A stretch of DNA of 60,235 nt from a virus (IMGVR_UViG_3300045007_000064:1-60235), one strand, 5' to 3'; shown: positions 3 to 17,353, numbered from the stretch's first letter. Numbers and translations: made by a program. The notes: generated by a model not told the origin, from the sequence alone.

Positions 3-350
3 GTGAGAACGATGCCGACTGACATTCCAGGAACAACGATGAGCTTCATCGCGGTCCTCATCTACGAGACCACTCAGGGGCTTCCTTGGGACGAGGCCGA
101 CGAGATGGTGAAGCAGCAGTACCTGAAGACGGCGATCCACATCATCAATGCCGCCGAGCCTGTCTGGCGCTCTCGTACCTCGGGCGACCGAGACGCGACC
201 GTGGGGACACTTCAATCCCTCGCTCGCATGGCGACCGTCCGCGGCATCCCGATGCTGAAGGAGGCGGAGTCTGAGATGGACCGTGAGCTGGTCGTGCGGA
301 ACTGGATCAATGAGTGCACGGAGCGTTACTCGAAGCTGGGGCGTGTGTGA
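3..350 (+). CDS. hypothetical protein (may be 5'-truncated)
   Basis: 115-aa ORF; stop overlaps the next ATG (TGATG). Confidence 0.7.
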   Translation: MRTMPTDIPGTTMSFIAVLIYETTQGLPWDEADEMVKQQYLKTAIHIINAAEPVWRSRTSGDRDATVGTLQSLARMATVRGIPMLKEAESEMDRELVVRNWINECTERYSKLGRV

Positions 351-2307: not shown

Positions 2308-2570
2308 TGATCAATTGCCTGTACTGCGGGGAATCTCGGAGTGCAATCCGGGCATCCCAGAAGACGCACCAGCCGATATACTGCGGGGCGGTGGACTACT
2401 TCGGGGAGGTCGAGTGGGAGCGGGATCGACACCGATTCCGCTCGTGGACCGATAATGAGCTGTGGAATATGGGGATTGACCCTCAGTACTACGAGCTGTA
2501 TCGTAGACTCGTGAGTCAGTGGGAGATTGACCCGGCTCATAGCAGATTTCAAGGAGCAAGCAATGAGTGA
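2307..2570 (+). CDS. hypothetical protein (CxxC...C...H)
   Basis: GTG overlapping the upstream TAG. Confidence 0.7.
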   Translation: MINCLYCGESRSAIRASQKTHQPIYCGAVDYFGEVEWERDRHRFRSWTDNELWNMGIDPQYYELYRRLVSQWEIDPAHSRFQGASNE

Positions 2571-3190: not shown

Positions 3191-3668
3191 GTACAATAAG
3201 GTCATTTTACCTTTTGGCCACTGAGAAGTAAATCCTTATTTTGGGTCGCCAAATTGGATTGTTTCGGTCTGAAAAAGATGCGGACGGGCCTTCCGACCCG
3301 CCCCGCACCCTCTCCCCTCTCTGCTCGGTACTGCCTTCCCGCAGCCACCGGTTTCTGTCTCCGGTGCCCAACTGCGGCTGGGTGGAGGGTCCGTTCCCCT
3401 CCCGATACCTACAGTCTACATCATTCCAGTCCAAAGATGCAAGCCTCATCACACAATCAATCGATGTTTGTTTGCCTGCCCAACTCTTGCGCCCTGGCCA
3501 GGGAGGCTAGGCCTACTCATCATCACTCATGTCTATGAACTATCTATGTGTTACTTATATGACACATGAGTTGATGTGTGTTCTATCAAACATCTGAGTG
3601 ATATGACTAGGCCTAGGCTTACACACCTACACACGAGGGCTGGGCGAGGCAGGGGAGGGCTGATCCTA

Positions 3669-5355: not shown

Positions 5356-5395
5356 ACCTCCATCATACGGGTAATCCGGGATTCAGTCAAGAAAA

Positions 5396-6444: not shown

Positions 6445-6552
6445 AGAAAAAACCCCGGTGTCAACCAGAAGAGGATTTAGGTTGACACCGGGGGTACTGC
6501 ACTTCCGTTTAGTTTCACCTTGAGGGGCGTTCACAGGCGTTTCCCTGGGTGT
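6445..6552 (-). ncRNA. candidate small RNA (~105 nt) ending in a 14-bp terminator hairpin
   Basis: promoter TTGCGT(6588-83)-18-TAAGAT(6564-59); perfect stem 6453-66/6480-93 followed by a U tract; no ORF ends before the terminator. Confidence 0.45.
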
Positions 6553-6629
6553 AGCTCTATCTTAGCACACGGCTCGGGGAGAACGCAAGCGTGAATGCGG
6601 CGAGCGCGAGCAGCGCAAGAGTCAGGACA

Positions 6630-7082
6630 CTAAACCGCATGATCCTCGTGCCAGTCCTGCACGACTGTCACGTTAGGATCACCCTCGAACAGCTCCGCGA
6701 ACTGGCCGCGGGTGAGGACGCCGGTAGGCTCATATCCTCGGCTCTCCTGGTACTGGGCAACAGCACGCTCAGTCAGCACCTCGTAAGCTCCGCCAGGCGC
6801 GCTCGCGGCCTCAGCGAAACCCTCAGCCATGAGGCGACGCTGAATGTGGAGGACGGTCAGAGACTTGCGATTCTCATTGCGTCCAGGCTTGCGAGCCTTG
6901 GAGTAGTGAACGGGGTCCGTCTCGCCTGCGCCAACCACGGAATCACGCGCGATCTTAGCCGGGGCAGGTTTGGCTCCCGCAGACTTCGCGCTTGTCTGCT
7001 TCGGCTCCTTCGGCGCAGGGGAGACAGGTTCGGTGTCGGAGGCCTTGGCGTCCGAAAGCTTGGGGGTCTTGTCATCACTCAT
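6630..7082 (-). CDS. peptidoglycan-binding domain protein with a low-complexity N-terminus
   Basis: VLHIQRRLMAEG...TERAVAQYQESRGYEPTG matches the PG_binding_1 pattern; leaderless. Confidence 0.75.
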   Translation of the reverse strand: MSDDKTPKLSDAKASDTEPVSPAPKEPKQTSAKSAGAKPAPAKIARDSVVGAGETDPVHYSKARKPGRNENRKSLTVLHIQRRLMAEGFAEAASAPGGAYEVLTERAVAQYQESRGYEPTGVLTRGQFAELFEGDPNVTVVQDWHEDHAV

Positions 7083-7099
7083 GACACCATTCTACAACA

Positions 7100-7130
7100 G
7101 AAAAGCCCCGGCGACTTTGCCGGGGTCTTT
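7100..7130 (-). terminator. intrinsic terminator
   Basis: ACCCCGGC/GCCGGGGC stem followed by TTTTCT. Confidence 0.8.
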
Positions 7131-7131
7131 C

Positions 7132-7419
7132 TCAGTGAACGGCGATGAACCCGAACTCTCCCAGGTCGTGCGGCTCGTAATGATCGCCGCAGCGCTCGGA
7201 CGGGTTACCAGTCCAGCCGGTCCCATCGCAGCAGTCGAGACGACCGCACGTGTGCCGCGCGTTGGCGTTGTCCTCACAGCCCGCGCACTCATCGCGCGAG
7301 ACGGAGATAACGCCTTCGCCCTTGCACGTGTCACAGGTGCGCGTGGAGAGGTAACCGGCGTCGGTCGTGTAGGTGACGCGGCCCATGCGTCCGCAGGTGG
7401 GGCAGGAGATGATGTCCAT
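7132..7419 (-). CDS. Cys-rich zinc-finger protein (DnaJ-type CxxCxGxG)
   Basis: CPTCGRMG, CDTCKGEG; leaderless TTGACA-17-TAGACT-6-ATG. Confidence 0.75.
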   Translation of the reverse strand: MDIISCPTCGRMGRVTYTTDAGYLSTRTCDTCKGEGVISVSRDECAGCEDNANARHTCGRLDCCDGTGWTGNPSERCGDHYEPHDLGEFGFIAVH

Positions 7420-7450
7420 GACTTCAGTCTACGCTAGCCGGTCGATAGTG

Positions 7451-7639
7451 TCAAGTTCTATGACTGAACACAGCCGACACAATGGCAGTCTGAGTGAGGA
7501 TGATGGCGAGGACCCACAGCAGCGGCTCGATCACACTCAGGGCGATGAGCACGGCGAGCACGAGAGCAGCGACCAGCAGCACGATAGCGATGACCGCGTA
7601 CCACTCAATCTCTCGGATCACCTTCCAAAAGCGTTCCAT
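7451..7639 (-). CDS. small membrane protein
   Basis: long hydrophobic stretch; GGAGGAGG RBS. Confidence 0.75.
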   Translation of the reverse strand: MERFWKVIREIEWYAVIAIVLLVAALVLAVLIALSVIEPLLWVLAIILTQTAIVSAVFSHRT

Positions 7640-7641
7640 GT

Positions 7642-7824
7642 TTAGTCCTCCTCCTCTTGCGTGGGTGGGCTTTGCACGACAACTGAGGCCGTGTTAGCCT
7701 TCACGATGATTTCCTGAGTCACAATGTCCTCAGCCTCGTCCCTGCGGCTGGACGCCCAAAGTAGGGCGAACATGACCCCAAGGATGATGAACGCCCCAAT
7801 TCCCACGATGAGGGCTAGTTCCAT
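7642..7824 (-). CDS. small membrane protein
   Basis: N-terminal TM helix; leaderless TAGACT-6-ATG. Confidence 0.75.
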   Translation of the reverse strand: MELALIVGIGAFIILGVMFALLWASSRRDEAEDIVTQEIIVKANTASVVVQSPPTQEEED

Positions 7825-7840
7825 GACTCTAGTCTAGCAC

Positions 7841-7928
7841 AGAAAGGGCCGCGCTGACAAACAGAGAGAGGGAAGGGAGCCAGCGCGGCCCGACGCGGGG
7901 TGGCGGGCCAGATAGGCACCTCCCGCGT
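7841..7928 (-). ncRNA. candidate two-hairpin sRNA with a 20-nt anti-Shine-Dalgarno loop
   Basis: promoter TTGCGC(7963-58)-17-TAAGCT(7940-35); stem 1 ACGCGGG/CCCGCGU; stem 2 is 13 bp with a G.U that forms only on this strand; loop UCCCUUCCCUCUCUCUGUUU; U tract; no ORF. Confidence 0.7.
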
Positions 7929-7946
7929 ACTTACAGCTTACACGAC

Positions 7947-7975
7947 GAAGGCCCCGGGCGCAAACCCGGGGCCTC
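7947..7975 (-). terminator. terminator whose loop region contains the -35 box of the sRNA promoter
   Basis: GGCCCCGGG-TTTGCG-CCCGGGGCC. Confidence 0.8.
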
Positions 7976-7984
7976 GCGTGCCTG

Positions 7985-8386
7985 CTACCAGGCCGTGATC
8001 GTGACGACGGGGGTGACCGCCTGCCGGGGCGACTGGAACTTGTCGTACAGCTCGGCGTGCGCCAGGCGGACGCCCACCGCCAAGTCGCGCAGCGTGTCGG
8101 CGTTGGCCTCCGACAGCCCTGCCGTCTCGCCGTCCTCGTCCACGTTGCCGGTGAAGATGACGGGGCCGTACACCTTCGCGCCCATGAGCGCCACGACGAG
8201 GTTGACGGAATCGAACTCCTCGCCCTCGGCGTAGAGGAACTCTTCGTTGTGGTAGGACGCGAGGTCCTCCGACCAGTAGATCGGCTCGATCATGCCGCCG
8301 ACCGCGTGGCGGAGGACGGGGTACGACTCGCCCTCGACCGTCAACTCTTCGATGGTGCCGTTCGGGTTGACCTTGATGAAAAGCAT
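7985..8386 (-). CDS. DUF3846-like protein
   Basis: LRHAVGGMIEPI...YHNEEF; RBS AACAGAGAGAAAGGGAAG. Confidence 0.7.
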   Translation of the reverse strand: MLFIKVNPNGTIEELTVEGESYPVLRHAVGGMIEPIYWSEDLASYHNEEFLYAEGEEFDSVNLVVALMGAKVYGPVIFTGNVDEDGETAGLSEANADTLRDLAVGVRLAHAELYDKFQSPRQAVTPVVTITAW

Positions 8387-8432
8387 GTGCTTCCCTTTCT
8401 CTCTGTTGATACCAGTATAGACTATTCCGGGT

Positions 8433-8464
8433 AAAAAGAAAAGCCCCGATTTCTCGGGGCGATT
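8433..8464 (-). terminator. intrinsic terminator
   Basis: GCCCCGA-GAAA-TCGGGGC followed by TTTTCTTTTT. Confidence 0.85.
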
Positions 8465-8468
8465 CTTA

Positions 8469-8657
8469 TCAGACCGTCTCGTCTGCGAACTCGGAGGGGT
8501 CCCAGTCCTCGTCCTCCCAGAGTTCCTCCTGATCCTCGTCTGTCCAGGGTCGAACCTCTTCGGCCTCGTACCCGTCGTATAGCTGAGCCACTATCGCACG
8601 AGCGTGCGCCTCGTCCCGCGCCGTGATGAAATGTCCGTCAACCCAGAAGTCTCGCAT
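8469..8657 (-). CDS. small acidic hypothetical protein
   Basis: 18-nt RBS identical to that of 7985..8386; promoter TTGCAT-17-TATGCT. Confidence 0.8.
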   Translation of the reverse strand: MRDFWVDGHFITARDEAHARAIVAQLYDGYEAEEVRPWTDEDQEELWEDEDWDPSEFADETV

Positions 8658-8736
8658 GAGCTTCCCTTTCTCTCTGTTAGCACCAGCATACACCTATCAG
8701 GTATGCGATGCAAGCTTTCTGTGCTACACTGGACGC

Positions 8737-8925
8737 ATGAGCAAAAAGCATGAGCCGGATGCCGGATTCCGCATCCGCCAGGAACTCCGCAAGGGGAGCC
8801 GTACCAGCCCCCACGACACCAGGCCCAACCGCCAGCGTTCCCGCCAGGATGCAAAGCGAGCCGCGATCCGTGATTCGGATCGCGGTTTTTCTTTGCCCGG
8901 ATGCACGCAAGAGTACGCCCACTAA
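8737..8925 (+). CDS. 62-aa basic protein (MSKKHEPDAGFRIRQELRKGSRTSPH...KRAAIRDS); the only rightward gene in the cassette region
   Basis: leaderless TACACT(8725-30)-6-ATG. Confidence 0.7.
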   Translation: MSKKHEPDAGFRIRQELRKGSRTSPHDTRPNRQRSRQDAKRAAIRDSDRGFSLPGCTQEYAH

Positions 8926-8927
8926 AG
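8904..8927 (+). promoter_or_regulatory. 24-bp intergenic motif
   Basis: CACGCAAGAGTACGCCCACTAAAG. Confidence 0.8.
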
Positions 8928-8937
8928 CCCGAAGGCC

Positions 8938-9147
8938 TTAGTGCCCCTCGGGGTGGTATGCACTGTCGCAGTAGCACGGGGTCTTCCTGACCGGAGCCGA
9001 AGCCGGAGCGGGGTTGAGGTACGCGCTCGACACGTACGTGATATCAGCGAGCGAGTCCACAACGTGCGCGAGCGCGTCCGCCGCGTCGGCCTCACTCATG
9101 GGAGCGTCGGACGTGTCGATCTGGATGGTGATGGTTGCAGTACGCAT
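8938..9147 (-). CDS. hypothetical protein (cassette gene; C-terminal CxC..H..H)
   Basis: RBS AAGGGAGAGGAACCCGAA. Confidence 0.8.
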   Translation of the reverse strand: MRTATITIQIDTSDAPMSEADAADALAHVVDSLADITYVSSAYLNPAPASAPVRKTPCYCDSAYHPEGH

Positions 9148-10369: not shown

Positions 10370-10408
10370 TGGTGCCTCCCTTTCCCTTTGTTACTTACAG
10401 TATACGGC

Positions 10409-16848: not shown

Positions 16849-16912
16849 CGGGTTCCCTTCCCTCGTGTGATACCAGCATACCCTATCCGCACCGCATCTG
16901 CAAGCTGGAATC

Positions 16913-16940: not shown

Positions 16941-16992
16941 AAACCCCCGGAGCGCGCGGGGGAAAGGGGAAAGGGAGGCGCGCCCCGGGGGT
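16941..16992 (-). terminator. 15-bp hairpin with a 20-nt anti-SD loop CUCCCUUUCCCCUUUCCCCC
   Basis: stem 16978-92/16943-57 with one G.U on the minus strand, just after the stop of 17006..17353. Confidence 0.75.
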
Positions 16993-17005: not shown

Positions 17006-17353
17006 TTAGCGCTGGAAGTCGAGGTCGTAGATTTCGACCTCGCGGGCGTTCTCGACCAGGCGCAGGATCGCGGCCCAGTTGGTCTTGCCCTTCTGACCGG
17101 TGACGTACCAGTTCTCGCCTGTCTCGCGCGGGTTCTCGGTCCGCATCGCGAGGTACTGATACGTGGTCCGCCCGCTGCCGGGGAACTTGGCCTCGATGAG
17201 GACCTTACTGCCGGGTTCCGGCTCATCGTACTTCGATGCTGAAGCCTCGGCCTCAGCGATCCGGGCGAGGACCAGCTCACGCTCGGCGGCGAGACGGTCG
17301 GCTTCAGCGCGCAGCTCAGCCGCGCGGCTCTTGGTGGATCGGATGCTTGCCAT
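17006..17353 (-). CDS. hypothetical protein
   Basis: leaderless TTGACA-18-TAGGAT-6-ATG. Confidence 0.8.
   Translation of the reverse strand: MASIRSTKSRAAELRAEADRLAAERELVLARIAEAEASASKYDEPEPGSKVLIEAKFPGSGRTTYQYLAMRTENPRETGENWYVTGQKGKTNWAAILRLVENAREVEIYDLDFQR

Follow-up and report, generated by a model that had tools for sequence, protein, structure and literature searches.

Evidence for a conserved two-hairpin RNA with a pyrimidine-rich loop complementary to early-gene leaders in a large virus related to Microbacterium phages

What is encoded by the 88 nucleotides (positions 7841-7928) that separate the gene of a DUF3846 protein from that of a 60-aa membrane protein in the early region of an uncultured virus? 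The original prediction described a promoter-driven small RNA of two hairpins, whose loop is antisense to ribosome-binding motifs of the phage's own early genes and which would silence leadered mRNAs while sparing leaderless ones. The window analysed here, 60,235 nucleotides (IMGVR_UViG_3300045007_000064:1-60235), covers the opening 60 kb of a virus record of 171 kb in IMG/VR. Among cultured phages, its closest relatives measure about 190 kb: Zooman, Big4, A3Wally and a fifth isolate (host Microbacterium foliorum), and Cece (host M. radiodurans). Neither a publication on this group of phages nor RNA-seq data for Microbacterium phages turned up in literature searches. The features discussed below are listed in Table 1.

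Table 1 Features of the element, its neighbourhood and related units in the window. Positions are counted from the first letter of the window; (-), minus strand.
Feature	Position	Strand	Description
Promoter-driven structured unit, about 135 nt	3275-3418	(-)	End of early region; strong terminator at its end
Promoter-to-terminator unit	6445-6590	(-)	TTGCGT-18-TAAGAT, about 100 nt, 14-bp hairpin with loop UAAAUCCUCUUCU, U6
Promoter of next gene	7822-7860	(-)	TTGTCA 7860-7855, 18 nt, TG-n-TAGACT 7839-7831, 6 nt, ATG 7824-7822
Short U tract, predicted 3' end	7841-7845	(-)	UUUCU; overlaps extended -10 region of next promoter
Stem 2	7846-7891	(-)	13 bp, 7891-7879 with 7858-7846; closes 20-nt loop
Loop	7878-7859	(-)	UCCCUUCCCUCUCUCUGUUU; 20 nt, inside stem 2
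Stem 1, 5' hairpin	7893-7928	(-)	ACGCGGG/CCCGCGU; begins at predicted +1 A7928
Predicted promoter of the RNA	7935-7963	(-)	TTGCGC-17-TAAGCT; fits the phage's own consensus
Hairpin T0	7950-7973	(-)	Arms GGCCCCGGG / CCCGGGGCC; predicted -35 box TTGCGC in loop; DUF3846 gene upstream
DUF3846 gene (Pfam)	7985-8386	(-)	ATG 8386; stop codon 7987-7985
Candidate target 1	8390-8419	(-)	-10 TATACT 8419-8414; leader AACAGAGAGAAAGGGAAG 8407-8390 of DUF3846 gene, ATG 8386
Candidate target 2	8661-8690	(-)	-10 TATGCT 8690-8685; identical leader 8678-8661; gene of 62-aa acidic protein, ATG 8657
Candidate target 3, leader of SprT-like gene (Pfam)	16854-16864	(-)	GAGGGAAGGGA; ATG 16848
Second pyrimidine-loop hairpin	16941-16992	(-)	15-bp stem, 20-nt all-pyrimidine loop CUCCCUUUCCCCUUUCCCCC; follows ORF 17006-17353, no promoter of its own

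The early region is a dense run of small minus-strand genes, most of them with their own promoter and their own terminator hairpin. In Zooman, Big4, A3Wally and Cece it is found twice per complete genome, about 175 kb apart, and it thus lies in a direct terminal repeat of about 17 kb, within which the element is placed in the isolates. The 171-kb record of the window carries a single copy of the early cassette region, so its terminal repeat was probably collapsed or cut in assembly. Two classes of mRNA can be distinguished in this phage, purine-rich leadered cassettes and leaderless-type units. Promoters of the early type, TTGAC/TTGCG-17-TAAGCT-gtaggt-A(+1), are present at at least 10 units in the window, and purine-rich leaders are found in some early units (e.g., AACAGAGAGAAAGGGAAG, GGGAAAGGGAG, AAGGGAGAGGAAC). 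Leaderless-type units, TTGNNN-16..18-TANNNT-6/7-ATG, number at least 33 in the window when an ORF of at least 45 aa is required, all of them on the minus strand, from 5355 to 56794. Judged by these signals, leaderless mRNAs made from near-consensus sigma-A-type promoters are of great importance to the phage.

The architecture first described for the element was recovered on the minus strand. The SigA-type promoter consists of TTGCGC (7963-7958), a 17-nt spacer and TAAGCT (7940-7935); the predicted +1, A7928, lies 6 nt past the -10 box and is the first base of stem 1. The 13-bp stem 2 contains the expected strand-specific G.U pair (G7880.U7857, an A.C mismatch on the other strand) and is followed by a U tract, though a short one (UUUCU, 7845-7841). 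The predicted fold of the 88-nt RNA matches the two-hairpin description exactly, with an energy of -49.3 kcal/mol (z = -6.45; 0 of 200 shuffles equally stable) versus -44.8 kcal/mol for the plus strand. The loop has an unpaired probability of 0.98 in the window, and of 0.88-0.98 over the copies. The claim that the element contains no ORF stands in one respect: no ORF over it is common to the relatives. In the window itself, a 34-codon GTG ORF (7815-7919) overlaps it. In a consensus scan for canonical intrinsic terminators (GC-rich stem, loop of 3-8 nt, at least 5 U in the next 8 nt), stem 2, with its 20-nt loop and tail UUUCUGUG, was not called; the other terminators of the phage have loops of 4-6 nt.

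All five isolates and the metagenome contig L049 carry the element in the same place, ahead of the leaderless membrane-protein gene; this includes Cece, in which the neighbouring membrane protein is just 58% identical. Every copy has the two-hairpin fold (about 81-95 nt, z -4.2 to -7.2). Covariation in relatives, which had been set beforehand as a check, was found: 14 of 20 pairs have changes on both sides, a number reached by 0 of 500 shuffles, in a set of six sequences from about four lineages whose alignment was guided by a covariance model from the window sequence alone and is fitted to that model. A plain MAFFT/RNAalifold alignment, in which the stems were misaligned, was dropped in favor of the covariance-model alignment. 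For both stems together, 94.8% of cells are paired, against 34-45% with the partners slid. Stem 2 has 10 of 13 pairs doubly changed and 94.9% of cells paired (six sequences); stem 1 has 4 of 7 pairs doubly changed, with the alignment of Zooman and Cece uncertain there, and its position holds a 5' hairpin of different sequence in every relative. Compensatory G-C to A-U changes are seen in both stems of Big4. The arms of stem 2 are entirely different in A3Wally and Cece, with the loop core kept. Among the copies the loop measures 19-23 nt, of which 17-19 bases are C or U; its core CUCUCUGU is invariant and CCCUU is nearly so. The 3' tail reads CCCUUUCU in Big4 and A3Wally, CCCAUUUCU in Zooman and CUCAUUUU in Cece. 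The G.U and U.G pairs of the window and Zooman are A.C mismatches on the plus strand, which identifies the minus strand as the transcribed one. We consider it very likely that the element is a conserved, structured minus-strand RNA whose large loop is under sequence selection.

The same comparisons bear on a simpler reading, in which the structure merely terminates transcription or insulates one cassette from the next; the pyrimidine loop would then have no function that depends on its sequence, and would match the leaders simply because CU-rich meets GA-rich composition. In favor of this reading, the -35 box of the next promoter lies inside stem 2 in the window and in Big4. An invariant loop core between two rewritten stem arms is not what a terminator calls for; a 20-nt loop would be a handicap to one, given the 4-6-nt loops of the phage's other terminators, and a dedicated promoter and a conserved 5' hairpin would be pointless. 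Moreover, a plain terminator suffices at the same position in L050 (Ga0157292_10000049, 2430-2510, plus strand), a more distant metagenomic relative (membrane protein 67% identical) that has a plain terminator and a leaderless promoter there, without the cassette. The cassette is thus a separable module. The element is best explained as a cassette of the early region in which a structured RNA replaces the usual small ORF.

Database searches placed the element in no known family: there was no Rfam match (cmscan of 7000-9000, both strands, E up to 10), and no match to the covariance models of 6C RNA (RF01066) or C4 antisense RNA (RF01695) at E up to 10. A search of IMG/VR by the neighbouring protein returned no relatives, and the loop 17-mer had two AT-rich chance matches there only. 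In 185,579 prokaryote genomes the 17-mer had 82 matches, none in Microbacterium and none fitting the structure model, where about 70 chance matches were estimated for a 17-mer in 596 Gb, both strands. The matches are thus close to chance and absent from Microbacterium, and no host or prophage copy is present among the genomes searched. A striking share of the 82 was located in genomes of Ktedonobacteraceae/Chloroflexia, where the sequence may belong to some repeated element or common leader. A filter for hairpins (stem, at least 9 bp; loop, at least 12 nt and at least 85% pyrimidine), applied to both strands of the 171-195-kb genomes, passed only the element and one other site (16941-16992).

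Whether the RNA is made on its own depends on the signals in front of it. The string gtgTAAGCTgtaagtA of the window is identical to one ahead of protein-coding cassettes. All relatives keep a -10 box (TAAGCT, TAGGCT or TAGAGT), and 6 nt further on each has an A that is either the base of stem 1 or no more than 2 nt away from it. A3Wally and Cece have a poor -35 box, in contrast to the good ones of the window, Big4 and Zooman (TTGCGC, TTGATC). The position of the -35 box in the loop of hairpin T0 has a counterpart at 10404, where a -35 box in a terminator loop precedes a protein-coding cassette. A hairpin is found at the position of T0 in all relatives. The simple terminator scan called a neighbouring terminator (8460-8443) but missed T0 of the window (fewer than 5 U in the tail). 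With such a U-poor tail, T0 may let transcription of the upstream gene run through.

A leaky T0 would permit a cis arrangement, in which the upstream mRNA (that of the DUF3846 gene or of the neighbouring cassette) ends at stem 2 as a 3'-UTR and the loop pairs with the 5' leader of the same mRNA, or is released as a 3'-UTR-derived RNA, limiting translation or marking decay. Besides the U-poor tail of T0, which unlike the terminator at 8460-8443 did not score as terminator-like, two observations favor this: the complementary leader belongs to the immediately upstream gene in the window and in Cece, and the second pyrimidine-loop hairpin (16941-16992) stands directly after an ORF without its own promoter. 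Against it, a phage-type -10 box is kept at fixed distance from stem 1 in all relatives, the T0 tail of A3Wally is U-rich, and the best-matching leader of Zooman and Big4 lies two cassettes upstream, past another terminator. We regard the cis arrangement as unlikely.

On the downstream side, the promoter of the next gene was found by a promoter scan and gives a predicted leaderless mRNA for the 60-aa membrane protein. Its -35 box, TTGTCA, falls in the loop/3' arm of stem 2, and GTGCTAnnnT-6 nt-ATG of the membrane-protein gene is invariant over all relatives.

The complementarities reported for the loop in the window were all found again. The perfect 11-nt match to the sprT leader is present, GAGGGAAGGGA at 16864-16854 being the exact complement of part of the loop. 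The leaders of the two nearest upstream genes are indeed identical (AACAGAGAGAAAGGGAAG, 8390-8407 and 8661-8678, minus strand), and the proposed 16-nt pairing with a 2-nt bulge amounts to 10 + 6 bp and -24.1 kcal/mol for each of them. AACAGAGAGAAAGGGAAG has exactly two copies in the 171-kb genome, each starting 6 nt past a -10 box and ending 3 nt before an ATG. The 5' half of the loop matches the GGAAGGG-type ribosome-binding stretch of several early leaders. Against composition-matched shuffled loops the loop-leader match of the window is marginal (P = 0.07 ungapped, 0.055 by energy), and it ranks about 11th to 14th genome-wide by energy, behind G-rich sites.

The match is stronger in several relatives. 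The gene of the 62-aa acidic protein and its leader are also present in Zooman and Big4, in which the loop GCUUCCCUUCCUCUCUGUC pairs over 17 of 19 nt with the leader AACAGAGAGAAAGGGAAGC of this homologue; the Big4 leader is the best predicted site genome-wide (176 kb, both strands; -31.5 kcal/mol) and beats all shuffled loops. In Cece, the adjacent upstream DUF3846 leader has the exact complement of its first 14 nt in the loop; a 13-mer of this stretch has no other occurrence in 186 kb. Compared with composition-matched shuffled loops, the ungapped match gives P = 0.002 for Big4, 0 of 1000 for Zooman and P = 0.001 for Cece; the pairing energy of Cece is ordinary (P = 0.43). With at most one mismatch, the 13-mer ACAGAGAGAAAGG occurs only in leaders just upstream and, inverted, in the loop, in five of five genomes. 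In every genome the longest sense-strand matches of the loop are mostly located in 5' leaders of the early region, where exact complements 10-14 nt long are found over the genomes compared; long complementarity is limited to one to three phage genes per genome. In A3Wally, the fifth isolate and L049, the loop is kept and the adjacent leader retains only AACAG and GAAGGGAA. The best leader match of A3Wally and the fifth isolate has 10 complementary nt (adjacent leader, 5 + 8 nt), and a ACAGAGAG leader matching the loop was not found in A3Wally and L049. Covariation between loop and target was not found: the SprT leader is without a matching change in Big4 and Zooman, and the loop of the window has diverged, its leaders not.

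Part of this signal may be a matter of composition. In the purine-rich upstream 1.5 kb, even shuffled CU-rich loops reach -21 to -24 kcal/mol. With the marginal match in the window and the ordinary energy in Cece, this is what a terminator with a by-product complementarity would give; weighed against the invariant loop and the superfluous promoter, such a terminator is quite improbable. The duplex-energy scan is dominated by G-runs, so the leaders of the window and of Cece do not stand out by energy alone. Numbers from RNAcofold were discarded: pairing inside a closed loop cannot be represented, and the structures had stem 2 melted or the 3' tail paired.

The uneven match could also mean that the small RNA is real and its loop serves another partner (host mRNAs, a purine-rich phage or host RNA for which it acts as a sponge, or a pyrimidine-binding protein), the leader match being secondary. 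The full retention of the loop in A3Wally and L049, where the matching ACAGAGAG leader is absent, points this way, as does the best-energy site in the window's genome, a purine-rich single strand of the 3418-3275 unit (-29.7 kcal/mol). That unit ranks only 13th in Big4, however, and chance is an unlikely source of the exact inverted 13- to 14-mers that lie beside the element in Cece, Big4 and Zooman; a partner other than the leaders is, in our judgement, decidedly unlikely.

The repeated motif may further be read as double-stranded DNA, with ACAGAGAGRAAGG as an asymmetric operator for a phage regulator and the inverted repeat as a terminator built around it. Two early promoters have ACAGAGAGRAAGG at +2 to +14, and an inverted copy precedes the promoter of the membrane-protein gene; the 13-mer thus occurs in both orientations and only at promoter-proximal places, in a phage that packs promoter parts into terminator hairpins. 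The stem arms, however, covary and use G.U pairs, which indicates selection on RNA; as for the motif, its spacing from the downstream promoter is different in Cece, that promoter is predicted to work without the motif in L050, and no candidate regulator was identified. An operator is very improbable on these grounds.

From sequence, fold, conservation, covariation, strand, promoter likeness and complementarity together, we infer, tentatively and at somewhat less than even likelihood, transcription, termination, pairing in vivo and repression as follows: the element would be a trans-acting small RNA of about 82-93 nt whose loop pairs with a few early leaders and represses their translation. Host sigma-A polymerase would start at A7928, with the -35 box within the preceding terminator hairpin. 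The 5' hairpin would bury the 5' end of the RNA; the GC-rich 3' hairpin would act as terminator and keep the pyrimidine-rich loop of 19-23 nt open. The 3' half of the loop, UCUCUCUGU, could pair with the first mRNA bases, AACAGAGAGA, of one or two neighbouring early cassettes, and the 5' half, CCCUUCC, with the GGAAGGG-type ribosome-binding stretch of many early cassettes. The target starts at a free 5' mRNA end and could therefore wind into the closed loop past one helical turn. Such pairing would cover the entire short 5' leader and block 30S binding, and would possibly create a site for a double-strand-specific RNase. With the leaders blocked, synthesis of a few early proteins (DUF3846, 62-aa acidic and SprT-like) would fall as the RNA accumulates, and leaderless mRNAs would be untouched. 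Counting against this reading, the promoter is of the early type, so the RNA would be made simultaneously with its targets; usual terminators have a longer U tract and a much smaller loop; and L050 lacks the cassette.

The original prediction of an anti-Shine-Dalgarno RNA is retained in part: a conserved non-coding unit with a phage-type promoter and an accessible loop complementary to early leaders is present, but the loop is without CCUCC, the complement of the canonical motif GGAGG, and so does not amount to a general anti-Shine-Dalgarno sequence against canonical sites of the host. The proposed switch between leadered and leaderless mRNAs fared similarly. Both classes exist, the leaderless-type units numbering at least 33, but the long complementarity extends to one to three genes and is marginal in the window, and the long match to the adjacent leaders is missing in A3Wally; a global switch is speculative.

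It gains some colour from the second pyrimidine-loop hairpin, whose loop is complementary to another leader class, that of GGGAAAGGGAG, and which is kept in Big4 (record position 5378) with a compensatory stem change. The 6445-6590 unit has an identical loop in Zooman (L001 226-345, minus strand) and is probably a further non-coding RNA, as predicted from the absence in Zooman of the 33-codon GTG ORF that it contains in the window. The 3' arm of its hairpin contains the -35 box of the next, leaderless gene. The 3275-3418 unit is kept with compensatory changes in Big4 (about 17.49-17.63 kb) and Zooman; its purine-rich single-stranded stretch is the top-energy partner of the focal loop in the window's genome, not in Big4. 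A set of phage RNAs (the element, the 16941-16992 hairpin and possibly the 6445-6590 unit), each antisense to one private leader class, might switch translation off leadered host-takeover genes, to which leaderless mRNAs would be immune; we hold this extension to be unlikely. Separately, a decayed sense copy of a promoter and leader, GGGACTGTGT-ACAGAGAGAAATAG, was seen in Cece (L008 1437-1500, plus strand), 15 nt past the terminator of the element; it is followed by no ORF, and would pair with the loop if transcription extended that far. This decayed copy suggests that promoter-leader modules are junctions of cassette shuffling.

Several known systems resemble parts of the proposed RNA. In c4 RNA of P1/P7 (RF01695) and CI RNA of P4, exposed segments pair with leader/ribosome-binding sequences of neighbouring genes and shut them off. 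Like these, the element is a phage-encoded small RNA with segments complementary to the phage's own neighbouring leaders; unlike these, which are processed from the transcript that they control and serve immunity in temperate phages, it has its own predicted promoter and a different fold, and belongs to the early region, within the terminal repeat, of an actinophage that is large and presumably lytic. In icaR mRNA of Staphylococcus aureus, a UCCCCUG motif of the 3'-UTR pairs with the Shine-Dalgarno region of the 5'-UTR. The likeness lies in a 3'-end pyrimidine motif complementary to a ribosome-binding leader, and icaR is a model for the cis arrangement; pairing there is within one mRNA, whereas the element is preceded by a predicted dedicated promoter and its best-matching leaders may be on other transcripts. 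The PeSL cassettes of T4-type phages and the terminal-repeat host-takeover module of SPO1 consist of small early genes with their own promoter, a strong ribosome-binding site and a terminator hairpin. They share with the present region the dense small early genes with reused regulatory parts, but are DNA-level shuffling and expression modules; we know of no PeSL or SPO1 module with an RNA-only cassette antisense to a shared leader. We know of no actinobacteriophage for which a regulatory RNA that acts by base pairing on a defined target has been described.

Highly expressed non-coding RNAs were detected by RNA-seq near the genome ends of D29, Kampy, L5 and Rhodococcus phage WC1 (PMC10986025). 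These are likewise non-coding and in terminal regions of Actinobacteria phages; they have no sequence relation to the element and are without a proposed pairing target, and the element, unlike them, is predicted from sequence only. The 6C small RNA, from the same bacterial phylum, binds mRNAs by C-rich loops without a chaperone (PMC6486639). The element resembles 6C (RF01066; 6C/B11 of Mycobacterium tuberculosis) in its similar size, GC-rich stems and actinobacterial setting, exposed C-rich loops of 6C pairing with purine-rich mRNA without Hfq or ProQ (PMC6486639). However, 6C is chromosomal and has C-run loops, whereas the element is phage-borne, with one long mixed C/U loop of 19-23 nt and a stem 1 without a C-rich loop; the loop of the element would moreover cover the whole 5' leader, from +1 to the ribosome-binding stretch. 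In its proposed action the element comes closest to 6C and to the c4/CI RNAs. With no Rfam match, it is a member of neither the 6C nor the c4/CI family, and represents a new family of RNA that is unusual within a known general kind.

The proposed pairing has a specific target, a 5' leader about 21 nt long, and the element is present in cultured relatives (Zooman, Big4, A3Wally, Cece) that grow on a laboratory host that is harmless. If true, the pairing would mean that RNA by itself can set the timing of host-takeover genes in a large lytic phage, and would be a natural example of regulation separating leadered from leaderless mRNAs. Were the multi-RNA switch also true, it would be an RNA-only counterpart of RegA/RegB of T4, exploiting the actinobacterial split between leadered and leaderless mRNAs.
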